From: Planctomycetota bacterium
Lineage (GTDB): Bacteria > Planctomycetota > GCA-002687715 > DRQF01
Direction of reading: 5' to 3'
Length of the DNA: 17,116 nucleotides
NCBI GenBank assembly: GCA_027001995.1
Contig: JALTLO010000146.1
Span: 23,757-40,872, forward strand
A program made the position numbers and the translations under genes. Numbering within the stretch: position 1 is the stretch's first letter; the number at the start of each line of letters is the position of its first letter. The notes under the pieces were generated by a model. That model was not told where the DNA came from and ran no database searches. It was given only the letters and a program-made list of their open reading frames with translations. Positions 3,730 to 16,530 of the stretch are shown piece after piece.

Positions 3730-4950
3730 CTACCCGATCTTCTCCATAACTTGGGAATCGACAGTCCTGTCGACCTCAGCGTAGATCTCGGTAGTGAAGG
3801 CGGAAGAATGGCCGAGGACGGCGCGGGCTTGTTCTATGCCGAATTCCCTCCGAATGCGAGTCGCCGCTGAATGCCTGAGTTGATTTGGGGTCCAACCCTC
3901 ACTCTTGGCTTTCTTGCAGGCTCGTTTGATTGCTCTACCGTATGATTGAGTGGTGAAGAACTCCCCCGGTGCCCTTGTACGGTCTGAGGTCTTTACAGTC
4001 CCCGGCTTGTTCCCCCAATTGATTGGGGTTTTCCTCTTGGCGTGGGCGGCCGCCCTGCGTTCTTTCTCCGATTCTTCCGGGGAAAAAAGATAGGCGTCAG
4101 GGTTTGGGCGCAGGAAACGACGAATAAGGTTGCGTACTTTCGGACCGAAAGGAATAACTCGTGACTTACCATGATGCAGAGTCTTGTGGTGTTCTGGACG
4201 GTAGAGCCAAGTCTCCGCTTCTCTGTCAATTTCGCGCATCTTGACTGTGCAAATTTCGCCAGGTCGGGCTGCGGTATACCACTGAACAAGAACCATCGTT
4301 CGAAGAACCGAGGTAAGGTAGGGAAGGACAGCTTTCACGTCATCCCAATCGACGGGAGCAATCGGCTCAGTTTCTTTGGCAAGGCTCCTACCGGCTCTCA
4401 GTGGCCTTACCGATTGAAGCGATCTCCAAATCGATTCGTCGACCAGTTCTTCCTCTACACCCCACCGGCACGCAGTGACGATGATCCTTACTTTGTAGGC
4501 AATTGTCGTCCGGGCGAGTTCTCGTTGAATCAAATCTTCCCGATAGTCCTTCAGCAATCGCGGTGTGAATGTTTCGACCTTGAGTTCGCCAAAGGTCGTC
4601 GCCCAATCTCGGAGAGTGACATCAACTTGGGCGAACCCACCAGAAAGCTCGCCAGTGGGAGTTCGATAGTAGACTTTGGCGACTTTCTCTATGTAAAGGT
4701 GAACAAGACGACCAACCGTGATGCCTTCTCGTTCTTCCGGCTTTTTCAGACAATTCGGGATTTCGCCGTATTCCAACAATTGGAGCTCAGCGAGCACTTG
4801 GTGATAAAGGGCCTTGCTCTTGGCAGAGCCATAGTGACCAGGAAAGTAATAGCGGTGGGTTCTCCCCTTCTCGGCGACGAATAACTCAACGAATCCGAGG
4901 TTTCGGGGCTTGTGAAGGCGATATGAGGGGTTTTTCTTCCTACGTGGCAT
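3730..4950 (-). CDS. Tyrosine-type site-specific integrase/recombinase
   Basis: Catalytic set R (ARPGE), K (HKT), NQLRH, LGH, Y (TTEIY). GAGGAG RBS. Located 135 bp downstream of a tRNA 3' end. Confidence 0.95.
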   Translation of the reverse strand: MPRRKKNPSYRLHKPRNLGFVELFVAEKGRTHRYYFPGHYGSAKSKALYHQVLAELQLLEYGEIPNCLKKPEEREGITVGRLVHLYIEKVAKVYYRTPTGELSGGFAQVDVTLRDWATTFGELKVETFTPRLLKDYREDLIQRELARTTIAYKVRIIVTACRWGVEEELVDESIWRSLQSVRPLRAGRSLAKETEPIAPVDWDDVKAVLPYLTSVLRTMVLVQWYTAARPGEICTVKMREIDREAETWLYRPEHHKTLHHGKSRVIPFGPKVRNLIRRFLRPNPDAYLFSPEESEKERRAAAHAKRKTPINWGNKPGTVKTSDRTRAPGEFFTTQSYGRAIKRACKKAKSEGWTPNQLRHSAATRIRREFGIEQARAVLGHSSAFTTEIYAEVDRTVDSQVMEKIG

Positions 4951-5085
4951 AGCGGACCGTCTCCTCTTTGACGGCTACCAAATCCGGGAAAACGGATACT
5001 GGTAACCGAAAACTGCTGAGGTTGCGGCCGCGCCACCGAATAGGTGGGTTGCCTGAAGTACAGGCGTCGGCGTGAGTTAAAAAAG

Positions 5086-5159
5086 TGGGCGATACAAGAC
5101 TTGAACTTGTGACCTCGTCGGTGTGAACGACGCGCTCTAGCCAGCTGAGCTAATCGCCC
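5086..5159 (-). tRNA. tRNA-Val(CAC), CCA not encoded
   Basis: GGGCGATTAGCTCAGCTGGCTAGAGCGCGTCGTTCACACCGACGAGGTCACAAGTTCAAGTCTTGTATCGCCCA. Acceptor GGGCGAT/ATCGCCC, anticodon stem CGTCG/CGACG, loop TTCACAC. Confidence 0.97.
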
Positions 5160-5198: not shown

Positions 5199-5358
5199 GA
5201 GTCGAGGCAAGTATTTGGGGGTGCTGAGGTTGGGAAGTTGGGGTTAAGGGTGGTTTGGTTGGGGTTTGAGGGTGTTTTGGGAGATTGGAGGCGTTGAGGG
5301 TATTTCTGGGAGGAAAAAGGGGATTGGGACCGTCCTTGGGGGGAACAAGGAGTCGTAA

Positions 5359-6258
5359 ATGCGAATTCGTCATGTTTTGAGTGTTGGTTTGGTGGGACTC
5401 GTTTCTTGGGGGTTCTTGGCTGGGTCCGTTGAGGCCCAGACATCGAGGCCCTCAGGGGCGCGGAAGGTGAAGAATGTGAATGCCAAGACAGAGCGCATTC
5501 GGGGGCTGTCTTGGTTCCCGAGCTTGGAAAGTGCCATGGCTGCCAACCGAAGAAATGCGAAGGACAAGCGCCCCATCTTCTTTGTGCGCATGCTCGGTAA
5601 CATGAAGGGCAAAACCTGAAGTGCGGCGCACGCACTGAGAACCGGGACGTTCTCAAACAGGGATGTGAAAAAGACTCTCGGACGCCACTTCCGCTTGGCT
5701 TGGATAGATCTTTCTGGGGAAGAATCTGCTGGGTCTTCATTTGCCCATAGCCCAAAAGATGCTCCGGTGATGTGCCTCAGAGGCAATGGCGAGCACAACG
5801 TACAGATGCTCATGACCACCCCAGATGGCAAGCTTCTGAATGCGGTGGCAGGTTATGCTTCGGCTAGGGTGCTTCTGGAAGAATTGAAATTGGTGCGGGA
5901 ATTAGACCAGAGCATCGATGGAAAGAAGCTTTTTGAGCAACGCAAAGTCATTGCGACGAAGCATCAGAAGCGGCTGGATGATGTGGAAAACATGGAATTT
6001 GACGGGGTCCTTGGACAGATCACCCGAACTCGTCTCACTGCCGACCGCAAGTACGCCCGTGATCACGCTCTCATCGATGCCAGAAGCTTCAACACCGTCG
6101 ATATGGTGGGCCATGCCAAAACGTTCTTTGGTAGTTCCACGGGCGGTGTGCCCAAAGGGAGAATCGGAGAATCCAAGAACGACCTCTCTAAGAAGAAGTC
6201 CAAGAAGAAAAAGGATGCACAAAAGCCGAAACGGAAGCGGAAAACCCTAAAAATCTGA
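5359..6258 (+). CDS. Putative exported thioredoxin-like (selenoprotein N-like) selenoprotein, 299 aa, Sec87 at TGA 5617-5619
   Basis: AAGGAG RBS and signal peptide (…GSVEA-Q). The two track ORFs are in one frame separated only by TGA: KRPIFFVRMLGNMKGKT-U-SAAHALRTGTFSNRDVKKTLGRHFRLAW, later TPDGKLLNAVAGY. SECIS-like hairpin follows. Confidence 0.8.
5636..5655 (+). promoter_or_regulatory. Candidate bacterial SECIS element
   Basis: TGAGAAC-cgggac-GTTCTCA, a 7-bp stem. The loop starts 24 nt after the UGA, with G at loop position 2. Confidence 0.6.
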
Positions 6259-6332: not shown

Positions 6333-6989
6333 ATGGATCCGTCGAGTCAAAGAAAACTCGCACCCAAAACTGGCCCAGTGAGGCCGGGAGTGAAGATCGA
6401 TGACGCGTTGATCCTAGGGCTCTTGCGCCGGGGTGACTTCAGAGCCATCGATTTGTTGGCCACCAACTACGGAGGGCGAATCTTAGGATTCGTAGAAAAC
6501 ATCCTGCAAGATGGAGCCGCGGCTGAAGACGTTTGCCATGACGTTTTTGTCAAGCTCTTCGAGAAACATGTGGACTGCCGAGATGCGGGGGCGTTTTCGA
6601 CTTGGATTTTTAGGATTGCCAGAAACTTGGCTTTGGACCGATTGCGGCGCAACGAAATTCACAAAAGAGTGCTGCGGAAAATCGAGGAGTCGGAACGCGT
6701 TGGCCGTGGGGCCAGGTCGAAGCCATCTTTCACACCGACTCCTTTGGAGCAGATGGAAAGAGCTGAAATGGTGGCCAAATTTGAAGATGCCCTTTTGTCT
6801 TTGCCGGAGCAGTTTATAACGATCTTTGTTTTGAGGGAGCGAGAAGAAATGAGCTACAGCCAAATCGCTTCTGTCTGCAACATTACCCAAAAAACCGTCT
6901 CGACCAGACTCTTTCGGGCGCGACGAGAGCTCAGAGAGGTCTTGCGGCCCTTTCTTGATGGCAAGAGATCTGGAGGGCAACCGTCATGA
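6333..6989 (+). CDS. ECF-type RNA polymerase sigma-70 factor
   Basis: Region 2 (AAEDVCHDVFVKL, FSTWIFRIARNLALDRLRR) and region 4 (LPEQF…MSYSQIA…TVSTRLFRARRELR). Confidence 0.95.
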   Translation: MDPSSQRKLAPKTGPVRPGVKIDDALILGLLRRGDFRAIDLLATNYGGRILGFVENILQDGAAAEDVCHDVFVKLFEKHVDCRDAGAFSTWIFRIARNLALDRLRRNEIHKRVLRKIEESERVGRGARSKPSFTPTPLEQMERAEMVAKFEDALLSLPEQFITIFVLREREEMSYSQIASVCNITQKTVSTRLFRARRELREVLRPFLDGKRSGGQPS

Positions 6990-8062
6990 ACACGTCAAGA
7001 AAGCAAGAAGGCTCTCGAGGATGTGCGCGGTTTGAGCCTCTGATCGATCTTATGATTGACGGAGAACTGGAAGCGCAAAGAACAGCCGGAGTACAAGAGC
7101 ACTTGCGAGGCTGCCCAAGATGTCGACGTATTCGTCGAGATATCTTGGGCTTGCGAGGCTCTTTGGGGGCTCAGGGCTCACGAGACTTGAGCACTGACTT
7201 TGTCTCGAGAGTGAAAGAAACCCTGTTCGAAGGTGCTGAACCACAACCGAGGCTTGTTTCTTCTCGCGGGCGCACACCCCGACGTCAACCTCAATTGGCC
7301 AATATGGCTGTCTATGCTGCCATGCTGATGATTGGCTGCTTCTTCGCTTTTGGGGCTTACCGTTTTGGACGGATGCACGAATCGCAGAGTGCCCTGGAAT
7401 TGGCGCGGCACAAGGTCGCCCCGGAATCAGAGAAAGAGGAAGTGAAGCTAGACAAGAAAAATCCTTCCATGGCGGCAGACTTTTCACCTGCCACAAGTAG
7501 TTCGGGTGAGGAGAGCGATGCTTCAGGGTCCTTGGGGCCCACCCCCCTAAAGAAAAAAGAGAAGCCCGCCACCCCACTCTTGGATGAGGCCATGCGCTCA
7601 GCTCAAGATGAAGCTGACATGGAGGCTTCATTCTATGATGATGACGACTTGTTTGATTCTGAGATCCCGACGGAAGACGTGATATTAAGTAGTACAGCCA
7701 AAGAAGTCTTGGAGAGTTGCGAGACGATGGCTGCTGTCAGGCGAGAAGTCTCGGCGGCCATGCCCATGGTGGAAGGTGGCATGCTTCATGCAGACCCTCT
7801 GGTCATGAATCTAGCTGAGACCACATTTGATTTAGAGTCCTTGCTCAAGAAAGGTCTTTTGGTCCCCGGAAGCAAGCTCATCGTCCCAGACGACATGCGT
7901 TTGATTTTCGAGATCAAAGGCAATGGAGTTCATCTGCGAATTGAAGTCGATCAATTGAAAGATCAGAAACCCCGCATCAACGTCGTTGACATGTCGGACG
8001 CTATTGAGAAGGCTCTTCGGCGGTCGAAGAAACCAGCTATCAAGAAGCTTAAGTTACGTTAG
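6986..8062 (+). CDS. Membrane anti-sigma factor with zf-HC2 (ZAS) domain
   Basis: ATGA overlap with the sigma gene. C…IDGEL…HLRGCPRC motif, one TM helix (MAVYAAMLMIGCFFAFGAY) and an acidic extracytoplasmic region. Confidence 0.9.
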   Translation: MNTSRKQEGSRGCARFEPLIDLMIDGELEAQRTAGVQEHLRGCPRCRRIRRDILGLRGSLGAQGSRDLSTDFVSRVKETLFEGAEPQPRLVSSRGRTPRRQPQLANMAVYAAMLMIGCFFAFGAYRFGRMHESQSALELARHKVAPESEKEEVKLDKKNPSMAADFSPATSSSGEESDASGSLGPTPLKKKEKPATPLLDEAMRSAQDEADMEASFYDDDDLFDSEIPTEDVILSSTAKEVLESCETMAAVRREVSAAMPMVEGGMLHADPLVMNLAETTFDLESLLKKGLLVPGSKLIVPDDMRLIFEIKGNGVHLRIEVDQLKDQKPRINVVDMSDAIEKALRRSKKPAIKKLKLR

Positions 8063-8153: not shown

Positions 8154-8798
8154 TTAGAGGTGCTTGGGGCCTGGGTGAATAGCAACATAGGTGCGACCCG
8201 CTCCGATGTTGCAGGGCAGGATAAACCCGGCTCCAATGGCTAAATCCGCCAACTTCCTCAGCCGATGAGTTGAATAGTTGAACTTGCGGGCACAGATCTT
8301 TTCGCCAGCCTCACCGTTATTCCACAGCCAATTCAAAAGCTTGAGACCGTCAGCGTCCAAGTTGCGGTCGAAACCGTTCTTCCGTCGCAGCTTTGAGGCA
8401 ATCTTGACAACTTCTCGATTGACCGGGCGAGTTTCTTTGCCCATGCGAAAATAGGCCACCAAGTCTCCATCACAATCCACATGGGTGATGAGAGGAAACT
8501 CGTTCATCTCAACTTCGCAAATCACGATGTCTTTCAAATCGTGCTGCACAACCTTCGTCGAGATGGTTGGCCTGGGATCACAGTATTCGATGGCGAGCTC
8601 CAAGACGCCAATCTCTTTCTCCGGGTCACCCACCCCAACAATAACCCCCGTGTCATCCACCCCCACCAAGATGAGGCCCCCAGCAGAGTTGGCCAAAGAC
8701 GCAATCACGCGACCAATCTTCCATGGAATGGGACAAGTCACTTTGAATTCAAGCGTGGCGGATTCCCCCCCACGCATGATGGCTTTCAGGTTGGCCAT
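8154..8798 (-). CDS. Schlafen/AlbA_2-domain protein with probable C-terminal winged helix
   Basis: GESATLEFK…IASLANSAGGLILVGVDDTG…G motif. Start refined to ATG 8798 because the longer ORF overlaps the divergent gene. Confidence 0.88.
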   Translation of the reverse strand: MANLKAIMRGGESATLEFKVTCPIPWKIGRVIASLANSAGGLILVGVDDTGVIVGVGDPEKEIGVLELAIEYCDPRPTISTKVVQHDLKDIVICEVEMNEFPLITHVDCDGDLVAYFRMGKETRPVNREVVKIASKLRRKNGFDRNLDADGLKLLNWLWNNGEAGEKICARKFNYSTHRLRKLADLAIGAGFILPCNIGAGRTYVAIHPGPKHL

Positions 8799-8938
8799 GG
8801 TGATACCTATGAGATCGTTGTTCAGAAAAATCGAAGCCGCAATAGTCCGGCCCCCAGGGCAATGTAGCAAAGGGCTGAGCCACCCCAAGGAAGCCTCGTC
8901 ATCCCCTATGCTTAGATTGAAGTCAAAGGAGCCCGAAA

Positions 8939-9685
8939 ATGCACGCAGCACGCTATTTGGAGGCGATCACCAAATTGATCGCTTGTTTCGAAGAACATGA
9001 AATGGAAGCCATCAAAAAGGCGGCCCTCATAGCAGCAGAAGCTGTGGAAAAAGGTGGCAAGCTCCACCACTTCGACACGGGCCACATGAAACAAGAGCCC
9101 ATTCGCCGGGCTGGGGGGCTCTTGGGTCTGCACCATTTGGAACTGCGCATAGAAGCCGATCATATTCTACCAGCAGGCCGAGATGCAGAATTGACTGTGA
9201 TGGAGCAACAATACTTCTACGATCGAGAAGAACTGGCAGACTTCCTCTTAGACAAAAGCCATGTGAAGGCAGGGGACGTTTTGATTCAGGTGTCCAACTC
9301 TGGCAAAGAAGCGTTCACCGTTGGTGTGGGGGCGGGAGCAAAAGCTCGGGGTTTGCAGCTCATCGTCTTGTCGTCTTTGGCCTTTTCCAAGTCCGTTGAG
9401 CCCCGGCATTCCAGCGGTAAGAGGTTGTTTGAAATCGCCGATGCGGTGATCGACTTGCGAGCTCCCTTAGGGGACGCCGTTTTGGAGATCCCTGGTGTGG
9501 GCACAAAAGTCGGCGCCACTTCAGGAGTCATGACGGCAGTAGCCCTGTGGGCTTTGATGTGCGAGATCACTGGGCTATTGGCAGAGAAAGGAATGGCCCC
9601 GGCGGTCTACCGCAGCGTCAACATGCCCGGCGGGTTTGACTTCAATCGAGAGCAACAAAAGTTGTATGAAGAGCGCGGGTTCTAA
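8939..9685 (+). CDS. SIS (sugar isomerase) domain protein
   Basis: GGKLHHFDTGHM…RRAGGL…GDVLIQVSNSG…RHSSGKRLFEIADAVID…GDA…SVNMPGG. AAGGAG RBS. Confidence 0.9.
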   Translation: MHAARYLEAITKLIACFEEHEMEAIKKAALIAAEAVEKGGKLHHFDTGHMKQEPIRRAGGLLGLHHLELRIEADHILPAGRDAELTVMEQQYFYDREELADFLLDKSHVKAGDVLIQVSNSGKEAFTVGVGAGAKARGLQLIVLSSLAFSKSVEPRHSSGKRLFEIADAVIDLRAPLGDAVLEIPGVGTKVGATSGVMTAVALWALMCEITGLLAEKGMAPAVYRSVNMPGGFDFNREQQKLYEERGF

Positions 9686-9769
9686 GTCTCTCTGTTCCTA
9701 AGGAAGCAAGTCAAGAACTCAGAAATGGCGGTCTCAGAATTTTCTTCATCCACCGCACCCGATAGCTCC

Positions 9770-9807
9770 AATAAAATCGCCCCCGCATCGAATCGATACG
9801 GGGGCGA
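9770..9807 (-). terminator. Rho-independent terminator of the lyase-like gene
   Basis: Stem TCGCCCCCG/CGGGGGCGA plus inner ATCG/CGAT, followed by TTTTATT on the minus strand. Confidence 0.8.
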
Positions 9808-9842
9808 GAAACACCATGCCGGTTGCTGCGTGGAGAATTTTT

Positions 9843-12419
9843 CTACCAAGACCAAGTCCAAAGGGCATCGGCGCAATTGTAAGCCTGCCCCCAGAGTGCG
9901 ATGTTCGACATAATCTTAGTTTCCGAGTTCGGGAACTGCTGCATGCGAAAGGCAATCTTGTCGTAAGAACTTGGGTCATTGTAATCCTGAGGTGTCTGCG
10001 ACGTGGTCTCGCTGTGTTGGTAATATCTTGTCACAGATTGGAACAGTGTTCTTGAGGCCGCCATGTAAGAGGGATCAAAGAACACAATACTCGACCAGGC
10101 CAAAGCCTGAGACGTCACCCAAACATGATGAACACTGGGGTTCATGCGATAGGTTTGATCGTCAATGCGGCGCCAAACTGTCGCTGTGGTCCGCGCATTC
10201 ATCGGGCCAGTGGGCGTGTCCTTGATCACCTCATCACGCATGAGGATGGCCATCTTCTTGATAACATCAACGGCGGTTTGATCCCATGATGCCAAGTAGT
10301 ACTTGCACAGTGCATTCAGAACGATGGCGTGCATCCAAGTCTGAGCATGAGGAATGCTCCACCCTGGGTTATAGACCAAACCGTCTGAGCCTGTCCGTTG
10401 CAAGTCAAGAACCTTCCAACGTTCCATCGTATCATGAGCTTCTGTCAAGTAGGCCGGATCACCGATATAGTTGTAGAGGTTGGTAAGACCTTCCAACTGC
10501 CATCCAAGGATACGAGCACCCCACCACCCGCTCCAGTTTTCTGGAGCTTGACGTTTGTAGAATTCACCCACTTCCAAAGCTGACTCGTAAGCCCCTTCAT
10601 CACCGGTGGTGATGTAGTAGAGCAAAAGTCCGTGTACCCAAGTGTGAGACGCTTCAGGAGCATTGTAGTTACCGTGGGTATACCCCTTCTCGTAAATTTG
10701 TCCGCCCCGCCTGGAAGATGAAGCGTGAGTCGTATGGTTTTGGTCATAGTCTCGGCGATGCTCACTCATGTCCCTTGCCATGTCGAAGAAAGCATAGTCA
10801 CCGGTGCGGAACCAGTTAATCAGGACGCCAAAGTTAAGGTCGTAGTGGTTAGACGAGAAGCCATCACCCCAAGCGATGTCACCAAAGTTCTCCCAGCCGT
10901 ACATTTGACGACTGCCGTAGGTGCCACCTCGGGAACGGAACTTAGGAAGTCCAATTTGACCAAGGGCATCTTGCTGATCGGCTGCACTGTCGTGAGCCAA
11001 AGTATCCATCATCCGTTCCCAACGAATTTGAGATGCGTCCGTCCAGTTGCGGCGTTCGATGAGCAAATCACCAAAGGCCCAGTTTTGGAAGGGCCAAGAC
11101 TTGCCTGGACGTCCCAAAATAGGTGCATTCGTCGACTCAGCATGCTCATAGACTTCCGCCATGCTGAAGCCACCTTGAGAAGGCGACCTAAAATTGATGT
11201 TCATCGTATGAGTCTTCCAACGACCACCTTCAAAGCGATAGTGAGTCGTACTCATCAGGTCCACAACGTTGCTGGTAGGAATGCCGTATTGCCCGCGATA
11301 AACCGGGCCAAATCCAAATGAAGGAAAAAGAGCCAAGGAAATCGTGTCGCCATCCACCTCAAATGCCTTGGGATAGTTTTGCCAAAAACGGTCCGTGGCC
11401 ACAGAGATCGAACCTGCGGTACTGTTGAGAGCCAAGGCGCCGTTGAAGCGCCCGCCGGTGAAGATCGTCGTTCCGTTTAGCTTTTCACGATAAAAGAAGC
11501 CATCTTCCATTTGCAAGGCATTCAAAGGAGTAGCCCAGTTCTGATTGATGACATAGGGGGCACCAGCCAAGTCACGAACATCTGTGGAAGTCACAGCATC
11601 GCCATTGGAGTCAGGCACCTTGAGGCTCAACTTCAAGGAATCAAAATGACTGGTATCATCGCTGTTACCAGTCAGAGTACCGATTTGTCCGTAATTGCCT
11701 TGGTTTTCCAAACGGAACTCAACCTTAACGTCGCTGTGCCCAGTGTAGAAGTAGTAGCGAATGGTAAAATCCAAACCCAGGGAAGGGATGTTTCCACTTT
11801 GGCGAATGATGGTCCGAACACTCGAATTGTATTCGAACTTCGTCGAAGTCAGAACGGGCATGACGCTGGCGCCAGCCACATCGAGGATATCCAAAGAACC
11901 AGGTGCGGCAATCACATCTGTGCCGCCAATCTTCACTTCTTTGAAGAACGAAAAGTTGAGCTTGTCAATCTTGAAAACAGCAGTCCCTGTGTCAATGGTG
12001 TACTCGTTGGCGGTTTCTGTGCGAACAAGTTGCCCGGTATGGGCTGATCCGGGAACGACGTAGTAGGTACGGGTTGAGTTAGCGGGAAGATCGGCGTTGA
12101 AGCTGAGCAAAGTCCACTTAACGCGCTTTGAGCCATCCCAGCGTTTGCCACCCCAACGTGCGGTCACTTTGGCAGCAGCTTCGACTGGGTTACCCAAGTC
12201 ATCTACGAGCAAGAAATCTGAATTTGGGTTGCTGATGGCCATGCCCAATGGAATAGGGACGGGCGCTCTCACCGAAACATTGTTCCGAACAAAATTCGAC
12301 GGGTTATCGACATAAATTGGGAATCCCATAACTTGGGACTTCGCCTGTACGGCGAATGATAAAAAAAGCAGGGCAGCCAACGCCCACTTTGTGTGCGCTA
12401 ACGATGAAAGAATTCGCAT
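9843..12419 (-). CDS. Secreted YetA/PcRGLX (exo-rhamnogalacturonan lyase, PL26-like) fold protein, 858 aa
   Basis: GGAGG RBS, ATG 12419 and a signal peptide. N-terminal barrel (W.DGS.RVKW.LLSF.ADL), central sandwich (RFWQNYPKA) and toroid motifs (YGWENFGD…NHYD…FRTGD…HRRDYD…SHTW). CDS is secure; the specific activity is not. Confidence 0.65.
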   Translation of the reverse strand: MRILSSLAHTKWALAALLFLSFAVQAKSQVMGFPIYVDNPSNFVRNNVSVRAPVPIPLGMAISNPNSDFLLVDDLGNPVEAAAKVTARWGGKRWDGSKRVKWTLLSFNADLPANSTRTYYVVPGSAHTGQLVRTETANEYTIDTGTAVFKIDKLNFSFFKEVKIGGTDVIAAPGSLDILDVAGASVMPVLTSTKFEYNSSVRTIIRQSGNIPSLGLDFTIRYYFYTGHSDVKVEFRLENQGNYGQIGTLTGNSDDTSHFDSLKLSLKVPDSNGDAVTSTDVRDLAGAPYVINQNWATPLNALQMEDGFFYREKLNGTTIFTGGRFNGALALNSTAGSISVATDRFWQNYPKAFEVDGDTISLALFPSFGFGPVYRGQYGIPTSNVVDLMSTTHYRFEGGRWKTHTMNINFRSPSQGGFSMAEVYEHAESTNAPILGRPGKSWPFQNWAFGDLLIERRNWTDASQIRWERMMDTLAHDSAADQQDALGQIGLPKFRSRGGTYGSRQMYGWENFGDIAWGDGFSSNHYDLNFGVLINWFRTGDYAFFDMARDMSEHRRDYDQNHTTHASSSRRGGQIYEKGYTHGNYNAPEASHTWVHGLLLYYITTGDEGAYESALEVGEFYKRQAPENWSGWWGARILGWQLEGLTNLYNYIGDPAYLTEAHDTMERWKVLDLQRTGSDGLVYNPGWSIPHAQTWMHAIVLNALCKYYLASWDQTAVDVIKKMAILMRDEVIKDTPTGPMNARTTATVWRRIDDQTYRMNPSVHHVWVTSQALAWSSIVFFDPSYMAASRTLFQSVTRYYQHSETTSQTPQDYNDPSSYDKIAFRMQQFPNSETKIMSNIALWGQAYNCADALWTWSW

Positions 12420-12815
12420 GCAGAACCTCCGACGGCAAAAGGAATCGCGGCATGCGGCCCGTTTGCGCCTATGAATTAGGCCCAAATCGGTTGCGAGGTT
12501 GAAAGGGAAGTTCAAACAGAACCCCCGGTCTTCGTCATGGGGTGCAGAAAACAGGTGAAAACCACTGTTCTCCCCCAAGACGGAAGATCCGCTCCATCCA
12601 TGCATCTTGTGGGCAACCTGCTACCGTATCCGTCGTATGACAGACTTAGGCCATTGGCTTTGCGTCACCAGCTTTCGCCGGCTTTGCCTTGGTCCAAAGG
12701 GACGCTATGAGACGGGGCGCTTGCGCGCGTCGAATTATTGTACTCTCAGCTTAGTCTACCCCGCACTTGCTCATGAGGTCGGAAAGATTCTGAAACACAG
12801 CACGCAGGAATAAGA

Positions 12816-13544
12816 ATGCCATCAAAAGACGAAACACCCGCCTACTTATCTTTCCTCCAAGAAGCCCAGGCTCAATTGGCGGCCGTGGTCGATAAGAATG
12901 CAGAAGAACTGGGTAAAGCTGCCCGCAAGATTGCTCCTCGCCTGAAATCCGGTGGCCGGCTCTTGGGTTTCGGCTGCGGGCATTCTGGCTTGATTTCCCA
13001 GGATGCCTACTACCGGGCCGGTGGGCTCAAGGGATACATTCACATCTTTGCTCCCCGTGTCGAATTAGATCAGCACCCCATTGCCCACAGCTCGGTGGAA
13101 GAAAAGACCCCCGGATGGATCGAAGGGCACCTGCAAGCCCAGTCATTTACCGACCGCGATTGCTTGATCGTGATTTCCACAAGCGGAGTGAATGCTGTCC
13201 CCGTGGAGGCTGCTCTTTGCGCCAAGGAAGCAGGCGCCTTGGTGATTGCCATCACCAGCGTTGCCGCGAGCTCCGCACTTTCTACTGGCCACGAATCTGA
13301 GATGAAACTCAGCGATCTAGGCGATTTTGTTCTGGACAATCATTCTCCCTACGGTGATTCCTTGGTGGCAGTTACCCCAAATGGTTCAAAAATGGGGTCT
13401 GCCAGCACGGCCGCCGGGTGTTTATTGGTCCAGAGTCTGTCTATCGCGGTGCAAGAAGAGTCCCTGCGTTTGGGTGCCCCTCTTCCCACCTATGTGAGCG
13501 GTAACTTGCCGGGAGGCATGGAAAAGAATGCGAGCAGAGAATGA
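12816..13544 (+). CDS. SIS (sugar isomerase) domain protein, second paralogue
   Basis: GGRLLGFGCGHS…YYRAGGL…IVISTSGVNAVPVEAA…VLDNHSPYGD…SGNLPGG. Confidence 0.9.
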   Translation: MPSKDETPAYLSFLQEAQAQLAAVVDKNAEELGKAARKIAPRLKSGGRLLGFGCGHSGLISQDAYYRAGGLKGYIHIFAPRVELDQHPIAHSSVEEKTPGWIEGHLQAQSFTDRDCLIVISTSGVNAVPVEAALCAKEAGALVIAITSVAASSALSTGHESEMKLSDLGDFVLDNHSPYGDSLVAVTPNGSKMGSASTAAGCLLVQSLSIAVQEESLRLGAPLPTYVSGNLPGGMEKNASRE

Positions 13545-13607: not shown

Positions 13608-13680
13608 TGGAGACGAAGGGAGTCGAACCCTCGACCTTCGCATTGCGAACACGACGCTCTCCCAACTGAGCTACGTCCCC
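13608..13680 (-). tRNA. tRNA-Ala(CGC), CCA not encoded
   Basis: GGGGACGTAGCTCAGTTGGGAGAGCGTCGTGTTCGCAATGCGAAGGTCGAGGGTTCGACTCCCTTCGTCTCCA. G3:U70 Ala identity pair, loop TTCGCAA. Confidence 0.97.
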
Positions 13681-14942: not shown

Positions 14943-16460
14943 CTACTTGAAGCCCTTCTTGATGAACTTCATATAGGCCTCATTCAATTCTTCCAGGTCC
15001 ACCCCATCGATGGCTGCATCCAGGGCCTTACCTGAGCTCCCGGTTTTGACCATAGTGTTGAAGTAGATGTCCAAAATCTCGGGCCAACGCTTGTTTTGCT
15101 TCTTACAGCTTTTGCTTTTCAAAAAGTAAACAAAAGCCCACCCTTGCGCATAGCAAATTCGGCCATTGGCATAATATTGAGGCTGGGTGTAAGTGAGAAG
15201 ATCCTTCAGATGGACGTTCTTTCCTTCGCGGACAGCCTTTTTGACCGTGGCTGTGCGCCAGTCGAACAAGCCAATTTTGAAACCCTTCTTGGGGTTCGCG
15301 CCTGCAAAGTAGTCACCATAACCTTCGTCAAACCAACGATGAGCTGATGTCTCACCCACAGAATAGTACAAGTATTGGTGGAAAGCTTCGTGAAATAAGG
15401 TCGAATAAGAATCTGCCATGCCGCCATCTTTGGTGGCATCATAGATGACCAATTCACCTGATGAAGGATTGAAGTAACCAGCACTGCCACCAGGACCGCC
15501 ATATTGGTGATACTCCTCTCGATCCTGGCAAACCCGAACAACACTCACAGCGGTGATTTTCTTCTTCGGAGGAAACACCTTTTCGTAGTGCTTTCTCATG
15601 CGCTCAAGATACTTCACAATATTCTTGGCGAAGATGATCTGCTTGGTTTTTTTCTGAGGAATGTTGTGGACGACGACGTATTGCTTTGTCGGTGTGGGCA
15701 TGATTGTCCAACTCTTGGGCAAGCGTCCACGAATCTTCTCGATTTTCTTGTCCATCTCCGACAAGTTGTCCAGATCCATGCCCTTCTTTTGGTTTTTGCG
15801 TTCCCGATCAAAGAACTTAAGCGACTTAATCGATGAATAAATCTTCGATTTGACTTTTGTTTTCGAGTTAGGAGAGCGCTCAGGAAAAATCTGATCCGTA
15901 GGAGCTTCGTAGATCACCGCCCACTCGAAGGTGCCATCGAAGACCACCCCGACAATCATCGAAGTGTGACCGTACTTTGTGGAACGCAGGTCGAGTTCAA
16001 AGACCTTGCCTTTGGCCTTGCCAACTTTAATGGCTTTCGACTTGGGTAGTTTGGCCAGATATCCAAAGCTCTTTTTCCAATAGTCCTGAAACGAAACCGG
16101 ACGGTTACGCTCTTTCCAGCGCCTCATCATCTCCGCGCGGTCAATCTCTGGACTACCATCACCCTGGCCCCCCGCTGTCACTTCAGCGGGGACGGCCGAT
16201 CCCGTCACCCCCCCACGGCGGCGGAATTTCATCAGGCGCAGGGCATAGCGCTCGCCAGTGCCCTTTTTCATGGTATCGGCTGCCCATTTGGCCACCACGT
16301 CGTCTTCATCCGGTTGAGGAGGAATCTGATCCCACTGGCCTGGAACCTTGACGGAGACACCATCAGCAGGGAATTTCTGCCGCTTGAGTGACTTGATTTG
16401 CCCACCAGCAGAAACAGCCATGGTCACGATTAGGAATACGGTTGCGAAATAACGATACAT
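14943..16460 (-). CDS. Secreted gluzincin-type zinc metallopeptidase (DUF1570/peptidase MA-like)
   Basis: Signal peptide from ATG 16460. HEAFH, then WFDEGYGDYF and YAQGWAFVYFL. Confidence 0.85.
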   Translation of the reverse strand: MYRYFATVFLIVTMAVSAGGQIKSLKRQKFPADGVSVKVPGQWDQIPPQPDEDDVVAKWAADTMKKGTGERYALRLMKFRRRGGVTGSAVPAEVTAGGQGDGSPEIDRAEMMRRWKERNRPVSFQDYWKKSFGYLAKLPKSKAIKVGKAKGKVFELDLRSTKYGHTSMIVGVVFDGTFEWAVIYEAPTDQIFPERSPNSKTKVKSKIYSSIKSLKFFDRERKNQKKGMDLDNLSEMDKKIEKIRGRLPKSWTIMPTPTKQYVVVHNIPQKKTKQIIFAKNIVKYLERMRKHYEKVFPPKKKITAVSVVRVCQDREEYHQYGGPGGSAGYFNPSSGELVIYDATKDGGMADSYSTLFHEAFHQYLYYSVGETSAHRWFDEGYGDYFAGANPKKGFKIGLFDWRTATVKKAVREGKNVHLKDLLTYTQPQYYANGRICYAQGWAFVYFLKSKSCKKQNKRWPEILDIYFNTMVKTGSSGKALDAAIDGVDLEELNEAYMKFIKKGFK

Positions 16461-16530
16461 CTTGGGCAAAACCCCTCTTTTTTGTCCTGAGAATCGAATG
16501 CCTGAAAGCAATCTTCACTTCTTACACTGT

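Follow-up and report, generated by a model that had tools for sequence, protein, structure and literature searches.

The locus at positions 5359 to 6258 raises a simple question: does the TGA that divides it separate two small genes, or does it encode an amino acid within a single protein? It lies in a window of 17,116 nucleotides, the whole stretch of DNA analysed here, which belongs to a Planctomycetota genome (G000 in the following; 5.22 Mb in 204 contigs, 92% complete). A preliminary description had proposed a hidden exported selenoprotein with a thioredoxin-like fold and a resemblance to animal selenoprotein N (SELENON, SEPN1). In what follows, the locus itself, the sites just upstream of it and the two genes behind it all lie on the forward strand.

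A single reading frame interrupted by TGA

The two ORFs at 5359-5619 (86 aa) and 5665-6258 (197 aa, GTG start) share one frame, and the only break in this frame is the TGA at 5617-5619. The 15 codons between them, SAAHALRTGTFSNRD (5620-5664), are open, as the preliminary description had stated. When the TGA is read as selenocysteine (Sec, U), the product has 299 residues with U87 at 5617-5619, and translation ends at a terminal TGA at 6256-6258. An in-frame TAA is present upstream of the ATG at 5359. The strong ribosome binding site claimed for the first ORF is seen as the Shine-Dalgarno sequence AAGGAG (5347-5352), separated from the ATG by 6 nt. GGAG or GGAGG likewise precedes the starts of the orthologues. 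Judged by eye, the N-terminus has two Arg residues followed by a hydrophobic core, with similar N-termini in the orthologues. This points to a probable type I signal peptide at residues 1-26 (5359-5436) with cleavage after SVEA (SVEA/Q), and the protein is therefore likely to be exported to the periplasm.

Conservation of the TGA among relatives

Searching 41 genomes gave 13 matches, of which 12 contain a single TGA and the thirteenth a TGC, all at the same aligned residue. Six metagenome contigs and another three genome records have the TGA at this site as well. The preliminary description had named a sequencing error as something that would undo its proposal. Such an error can be dismissed, because independent genomes and metagenome contigs carry the same TGA and the best-matching sequencing run, which may be the source sample, has no differing letters across 5200-5970.

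A profile search over 301 Planctomycetota genomes matched 98 of them at E-values up to 1e-8, a count in which the weak matches include generic thioredoxins and some genomes hold several family genes. Among the best 100 matches in these genomes, 88 contain a TGA. A profile search centred on genome G308 returned the same genomes and is not an independent sample. On the loci that were fetched, the 113 aligned sites comprise 92 TGA, 17 Cys codons, 3 Ser and 1 Tyr, a ratio that is not an unbiased estimate because 20 loci were picked for lacking TGA. Removal of the Tyr row and of three rows that are generic CxxC thioredoxins left 109 rows, 92 with TGA and 17 without, and these family members are related sequences rather than independent samples. 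The selA gene was detected in 53 of the 55 genomes whose strong matches hold TGA, the two misses being 83-84% complete, and in 7 of the 10 whose listed strong matches are Cys-only, with a phylum background of 221 of 301. In a quick tree, which we treat as a lead and not as a result, the Cys clade is nested within a Sec clade. A range beyond Planctomycetota is indicated by one record titled Deltaproteobacteria and by taxa in the Atlas.

The expected division of these genes by annotation is evident in a protein library, where 131 of 150 matches begin past the site, 4 end just before it, 1 begins at residue 80 and 14 span it. The spanning homologues carry Cys (11), Trp (2) or Ser (1). The expectation that relatives would align across the TGA and have mostly TGA or Cys at this position is thus borne out, and the caveat that Trp, Arg or another residue there would speak against Sec applies to the two Trp and the one Ser among the 14 library homologues.

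Several further observations concern individual relatives. Loci L076, L083 and L084 have Ser at the Sec site within a Sec clade of the quick tree and are possibly inactive paralogues. Tandem pairs of family genes with one TGA per gene occur at L098, L099, L104, L105, L106 and L110, raising the possibility of heterodimers. In genome G045, contig C298 carries selA (6618-7979) and, some 1.9 kb away, a family gene (3799-4767), and G000 itself holds two more TGA paralogues of the family, on contigs C84 and C56.

A SECIS hairpin downstream of the TGA

Folding identified a candidate bacterial SECIS hairpin at 5636-5655, with a stem of 7 bp (5636-5642 paired with 5649-5655) and a 6-nt loop, CGGGAC (5643-5648), that has G at position 2. 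The preliminary description contains neither this hairpin nor the conservation of Cys139 and the ECF operon context treated below. It lies 23 nt after the TGA, and the 22-nt segment has a folding energy of -8.3 kcal/mol. The published bSECIS model asks for a loop of 3-9 nt with G in the first two loop positions, a stem of 4-16 bp, a spacing of 16-37 nt and an MFE of at most -7.5 (PMC13188914, Fig. 2 legend). The hairpin agrees with all four criteria of this model, of which E. coli fdhF is a type, but it differs from that type in having no bulged U in the upper stem, and no Rfam family matched it.

The hairpin is also maintained in the family. A full 6-bp stem is present in 62 of the 92 TGA members, where resampling of synonymous codons gave an expectation of 2.2, and in none of the 17 non-TGA members; these counts are not independent trials because the members are related. 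In the other 30 TGA members the stem is not complete in this register, and many of these have a shifted one. Stem pairs are exchanged on both sides among members (A-U/C-G, G-C/A-U and C-G/G-C), and G is found at loop position 2 in 86 of 92 TGA members. The codon for the Arg seven residues after the Sec is AGA or AGG in 60 of 92 TGA members versus 2 of 17 others.

Decoding of the UGA

The check for a Sec machinery proposed in the preliminary description turned up all four components in the host genome. The proteins SelA (510.9 bits), SelB (334.3) and SelD (357.2) each scored above the cut-off, and tRNA-Sec (selC) was found by both ARAGORN and Rfam (RF01852). On contig C148, selA and selD adjoin the tRNA-Sec gene, with selB on C17, and selD carries an in-frame TGA itself. 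What marks a bacterial selenoprotein gene is thus present at this locus: a UGA conserved in one column with Cys homologues, the genes selA to selD and a SECIS hairpin. We conclude that UGA87 is almost certainly read as Sec, and the hidden read-through is strongly supported by the conserved column, the machinery and the hairpin.

Other ways of explaining the TGA have to be weighed against this. It might be decoded as Trp or another standard residue through a variant code or a suppressor, a reading that could draw on the two full-length library homologues with Trp at the site (P0089 and P0139). The 90% cluster of P0089, however, mixes two Trp forms with two forms starting past the site, which suggests that gene callers treated a TGA differently, and homologues without TGA mostly carry Cys. 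TGA is the commonest stop in G000 (681 of 1652 ORFs of at least 400 codons) and RF2 is encoded, so the genome does not use code 4 or 25. The same codon terminates the 5359-6258 gene, and the sole tRNA with a UCA anticodon is tRNA-Sec. Decoding as a standard residue is accordingly very improbable. We consider it just as improbable that the locus represents two genuine genes, a pseudogene or a sequencing error. Gene callers do list both pieces as proteins, but the stop is always TGA and always falls in one catalytic column across many families of Planctomycetota, and the SECIS is retained only alongside it. Two genes would moreover require that one thioredoxin domain be divided by the TGA, with its first strand on one side and the active-site helix on the other, leaving the downstream piece with no signal peptide.

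Fold and active site

The AlphaFold model of the Sec-containing protein, built with 112 sequences, has a thioredoxin fold (pLDDT 95.8, pTM 0.93). Its closest structural match is 3f9u (Z 10.7, rmsd 2.1, 108 residues aligned by VIA-align), followed by 3ira (Z 9.6), 2lst (Z 9.2), and AGR3 and DsbD-gamma (both Z 8.2). The predicted structure is with confidence of the DsbD-gamma/DUF255/AGR thioredoxin type. The core spans approximately residues 43-185 (5485-5913), as delimited by the model, the structure matches and conservation, and includes a loop insertion bearing the conserved motifs G-x-S-x-x-H-x-P and G-x-G-x-H-N-x-Q. In the model U87 starts a helix, and in the alignments it falls on the Cys of AGR2 and on the first Cys of the CxxC motif in 3ira and 2lst. 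The thioredoxin-like layout with U at the catalytic position, which had been read from the sequence, is therefore upheld by the predicted fold and its structural matches.

The active site has no second Cys three residues from the Sec, the sequence being U87-S-A-A, and Cys is absent from +3 in all 92 TGA members. This agrees with the earlier claim that an adjacent CxxU or UxxC partner is lacking, and it rules out a classical CxxC, UxxC or CxxU oxidoreductase. The only Cys of the protein is the distal Cys139 (5773-5775), a candidate resolving cysteine that is found in 72 of 109 rows and is invariant in the seven closest relatives. Around it G125, S127, H130, G144, N147 and Q149 are near-invariant. 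A resolving role for Cys139 is plausible because its loop by topology precedes the strand of the thioredoxin cis-Pro loop. In other clades a Cys occupies position -1 or another place within the loop, and both position -1 and the loop window are devoid of Cys in 24 of 92 TGA members. C-terminal to the core, the model and conservation define a helical extension (5914-6180) ending in a conserved FFGS motif. The Lys-rich tail of the preliminary description is seen at 6169-6255, where 15 of the last 29 residues are Lys or Arg, and its sequence is unconserved across the orthologues.

Relation to known thioredoxin-like families

Pfam returned no match for the window protein at E-values up to 1, and NCBIfam none of note. 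Among family members, 9 of 29 match PF13899 weakly (best E-value 6e-5), and weak matches to DUF255 also occur. The protein shares the fold of PF13899, PF03190 (DUF255), DsbD-gamma, AGR2/AGR3 and UAS domains, with its Sec at their first-Cys position. It differs from these by having Sec in place of Cys, no Cys at +3, a long conserved loop with Cys139 and a helical C-terminal extension.

Two groups of described selenoproteins, VPGUxxT (NF041382/NF041383) and Trx7/PDZ (NF041199), have Sec at the same structural position. Of 54 family cores, 6 match NF041382/NF041383 weakly (best E-value 7e-6) and 3 match NF041199 (best E-value 3e-4). Unlike these groups, the window protein has neither a VPGU or CxxU motif nor a PDZ domain, and it is matched by none of their models. 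The controls from the same genome were recognised: the Trx7/PDZ gene of G000 scored 360.7 against a cut-off of 300, and a partial reading of its VPGU gene gave 263.6 against one of 275. Membership of the window protein in either group is therefore rejected.

The family is real, well supported and uncatalogued in Pfam, NCBIfam 20.0 and a published family table. This table (PMC13188914, Table 1, May 2026), with 119 prokaryotic families, has no SelN-like entry and none with the motif of the family. The accessible portions of deep-Sep and BSepDB mention neither SelN nor Planctomycetes. Split thioredoxin-type selenoprotein candidates without SECIS do appear in the available text and Table S9 of a 2016 planctomycete paper. 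Literature searches, which covered few subscription papers, gave no description of the family.

The host genome contains other candidates of this kind. Thioredoxin-type genes with TGA read-through are found at C44:5498+, C68:54773-, C86:28474+, C88:69091- and C27:3790+ (L162-L165 and L169), most of them with signal-like N-termini. The C86 gene is the Trx7/PDZ selenoprotein above cut-off and the C27 gene is of the VPGU type; for the C44 and C88 read-through proteins no Pfam or NCBIfam model matched. Outside the thioredoxins, Sec candidates with a hairpin are an exported FG-GAP repeat protein with W-U-C (C105:4114-, L166), an exported 530-aa protein of no known type (C78:49749-, L167) and a CzcB-like efflux adaptor with the TGA in a Cys-rich repeat (C58:61213-, L168). 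The scan gave 16 hits from 303 TGA versus 9 from 369 TAA/TAG, so some of its Sec candidates arise by chance.

Relation to selenoprotein N

The preliminary description linked the protein to SELENON through the spacing U-x5-LR-x16-F-x3-W. This spacing is present, as U87-x5-LR94-x16-F111-x3-W115, but it is not specific to SELENON because AGR2 and DUF255 thioredoxins fit it too. Published work describes SELENON as having an SCUG motif (PMC8584023), with C427-U428 in a predicted thioredoxin domain, an EF-hand and a type II topology (PMC7474598), and a Sec domain that faces the extracytoplasmic space (PMC7474598, PMC10650576). Its residues G463, R466 and R469 are reported to sit inside the SRE hairpin (PMC3541580), whose codons 463-469 are mutated in myopathy, and we infer from SCUG and G463 that U is residue 462 in this numbering (PMC8584023, PMC3541580). 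A 2026 review likens the SRE to a bacterial SECIS and still calls the function of the Sec 'enigmatic' (PMC12936836).

Both proteins have Sec in a predicted thioredoxin domain that is extracytoplasmic, in the window protein by prediction, and both genes have a coding-region hairpin 3' of the UGA. The window protein differs in having K-T-U-S instead of SCUG and His at +4, in being half the length with no EF-hand match, and in a signal that by eye looks cleavable where SELENON has a type II anchor. Of the four SELENON positions C-1, G+1, R+4 and R+7 it keeps only R+7, and hence it is not a member of SELENON. Sister clades keep up to three of these: Arg at +4 occurs in 30 of 109 family members and Cys at -1 in 23 of 109, giving C-U in sister clades and C-U-G in two members. 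The essentially invariant Arg at +7, corresponding to R469, is found in 104 of 109 family members. The 5' arm of the family SECIS covers codons +6 to +8, including that of this Arg, and the SRE hairpin of SELENON covers the same codons.

Database searches add little on this point. SELENON was absent among the PDB sequence and fold matches, in searches that were word-limited or ran over sets without SELENON and are not evidence against homology. It was also absent among 7999 crowded candidates in a profile search of proteins of 525-2000 aa, which carries no weight against homology either. A single-sequence search with the core of a C-U clade gave 9 matches, all bacterial. In the Atlas, natural Cys homologues as queries led to unnamed bacterial clusters (0.90-0.91), most commonly of Myxococcota and Planctomycetota, and to Thioredoxin_7 leads under 0.8.

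A common ancestry of the redox domain with SELENON is plausible, and more so for the C-U clades. One might go further and propose that the Planctomycetota superfamily is the sister or source of the SELENON redox domain, with Sec as the ancestral state and the SRE as a relic of a SECIS; we regard this as a tentative idea that is more doubtful than not. A thesis is said to describe a SelN homologue from Poribacteria, which would lower the novelty of a 'bacterial SelN'; a literature search for such a homologue found nothing.

Genomic context

Behind the Sec gene, after a gap of 74 nt, lies an ECF sigma factor gene (6333-6989; Sigma70_r2, r4_2 and TIGR02937 above cut-off), the second gene of a probable operon. 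It is followed by a zinc-binding zf-HC2 anti-sigma gene (6986-8062; PF13490, E-value 6e-8), whose product has a hydrophobic segment and a C-terminal domain and whose start at 6986 overlaps the sigma stop. The sigma gene also adjoins the Sec gene in genomes G001, G004, G005 and G008, and the anti-sigma gene following it was confirmed in G001 and G005. In G005 and G008 it begins 7-13 nt past the stop of the Sec gene. In G004 its reading frame stays open all the way from that stop codon. Among nine genomes of the taxonomic family, the five with an orthologue all have their closest sigma directly behind it. In the four genomes lacking an orthologue, no sigma was matched at 1e-30 in three, and the remaining one has a 35% match. 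The ECF context is confined to this one taxonomic family, and in the wider subfamily no common partner was seen among 66 neighbour ORFs of the 86 listed.

A scan for sigma-70 promoters and terminators stayed at chance level and neither favours nor excludes co-transcription. Conserved boxes upstream of the Sec gene form a candidate ECF-type promoter at 5308-5334, with GGGAGG (5308-5313) and CGTC (5331-5334) separated by 17 nt. These boxes lie shortly upstream of all five family-level orthologues, with a spacer of 17 in four and 16 in one. The arrangement GGGAGG-N16/17-CGTC resembles an ECF promoter, judging by ECF -10 elements, and the adjacent sigma factor may be the one that reads it. Genome-wide the pair is not enriched (10 matches at spacer 17 versus 2-15 at other spacers), so it does not indicate a wider regulon. 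SigR-RsrA is an ECF sigma and zinc-binding anti-sigma (ZAS) system. The window operon resembles systems of that type in the order of ECF sigma then zf-HC2 anti-sigma and in the candidate self-read promoter, but its anti-sigma appears to be membrane-anchored with an outer domain and its first gene is an uncatalogued selenoprotein.

Elsewhere in the window, a phage-type integrase gene (3730-5159, reverse strand) adjoins tRNA-Val(CAC) and lies just upstream of the Sec gene in divergent orientation; this is probably the edge of an integrated element. An AlbA_2/Schlafen-domain protein is encoded at 8154-8951 (reverse strand). An exported protein of 920 aa, weakly similar to PcRGLX/GH127, is encoded between two SIS-domain genes (8939-13544), a tRNA-Ala lies at 13608-13680 and a DUF1570-like exported protein is encoded at 14943-16511 (reverse strand). 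In G004, an ECF sigma-like match (L176, C19:24151-24735) has one TGA in a frame of 692 codons; a fusion, two separate genes or recoding might each explain it.

Proposed mechanism

Taken together, we consider it probable that the protein acts as a periplasmic Sec thiol oxidoreductase in an ECF-controlled stress operon. SelB with Sec-tRNA would bind the hairpin 23 nt downstream and decode UGA87 as Sec in competition with RF2, yielding the 299-aa precursor, from which the signal peptide, as its sequence suggests, would export a protein of about 273 aa to the periplasm. There the selenolate of Sec87 may attack an oxidised target, such as a protein disulfide, a sulfenic acid or a peroxide, as the fold and established thioredoxin chemistry suggest. 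With no CxxU or UxxC partner to resolve the adduct, this step might fall to the distal Cys139 or to a thiol from outside, although Cys139 is not universal, which speaks against the mechanism in full. Re-reduction could proceed through a DsbD/CcdA relay; G000 encodes a membrane domain of the DsbD/CcdA type (DsbD_TM above cut-off). Synteny and the conserved promoter-like site suggest that the gene leads a self-regulated ECF sigma/zinc anti-sigma operon, and the protein is therefore probably an effector of envelope oxidative or thiol stress.

Instead of being a catalytic reductase, the protein might sense redox state or metals, or assist the sigma/anti-sigma pair. Sec87 would then relay a signal after reacting with the outer domain of the anti-sigma, with an oxidant or with a soft metal (Hg, Cu, As), and when selenium is scarce, termination at the UGA could in addition reduce how much of the downstream sigma is made. 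In line with such a role are the lone Sec, close in sequence to the conserved residues His91, Ser127, His130 and Asn147, the close spacing of the sigma gene in G005 and G008, the open frame in G004, and the presence of non-catalytic or single-Cys forms (AGR2/3, UAS) among the nearest structural relatives. A sigma neighbour is, however, missing from most of the wider family, so the core function of the family is independent of the sigma factor. We see a sensor as unlikely but not negligible, and favour the thiol oxidoreductase.

Implications

The recoding mechanism itself is textbook. What is gained is a large exported selenoprotein family whose genes annotation divides into two pieces. A lone Sec operating with a distal Cys in the periplasm would be an unusual redox design, and the conserved ECF operon gives a starting point for studying how the family is regulated. 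If the link to SELENON holds, the family would provide a soluble bacterial model for a human myopathy protein, and its small soluble proteins together with the ECF operon would be a tractable route to SELENON chemistry.
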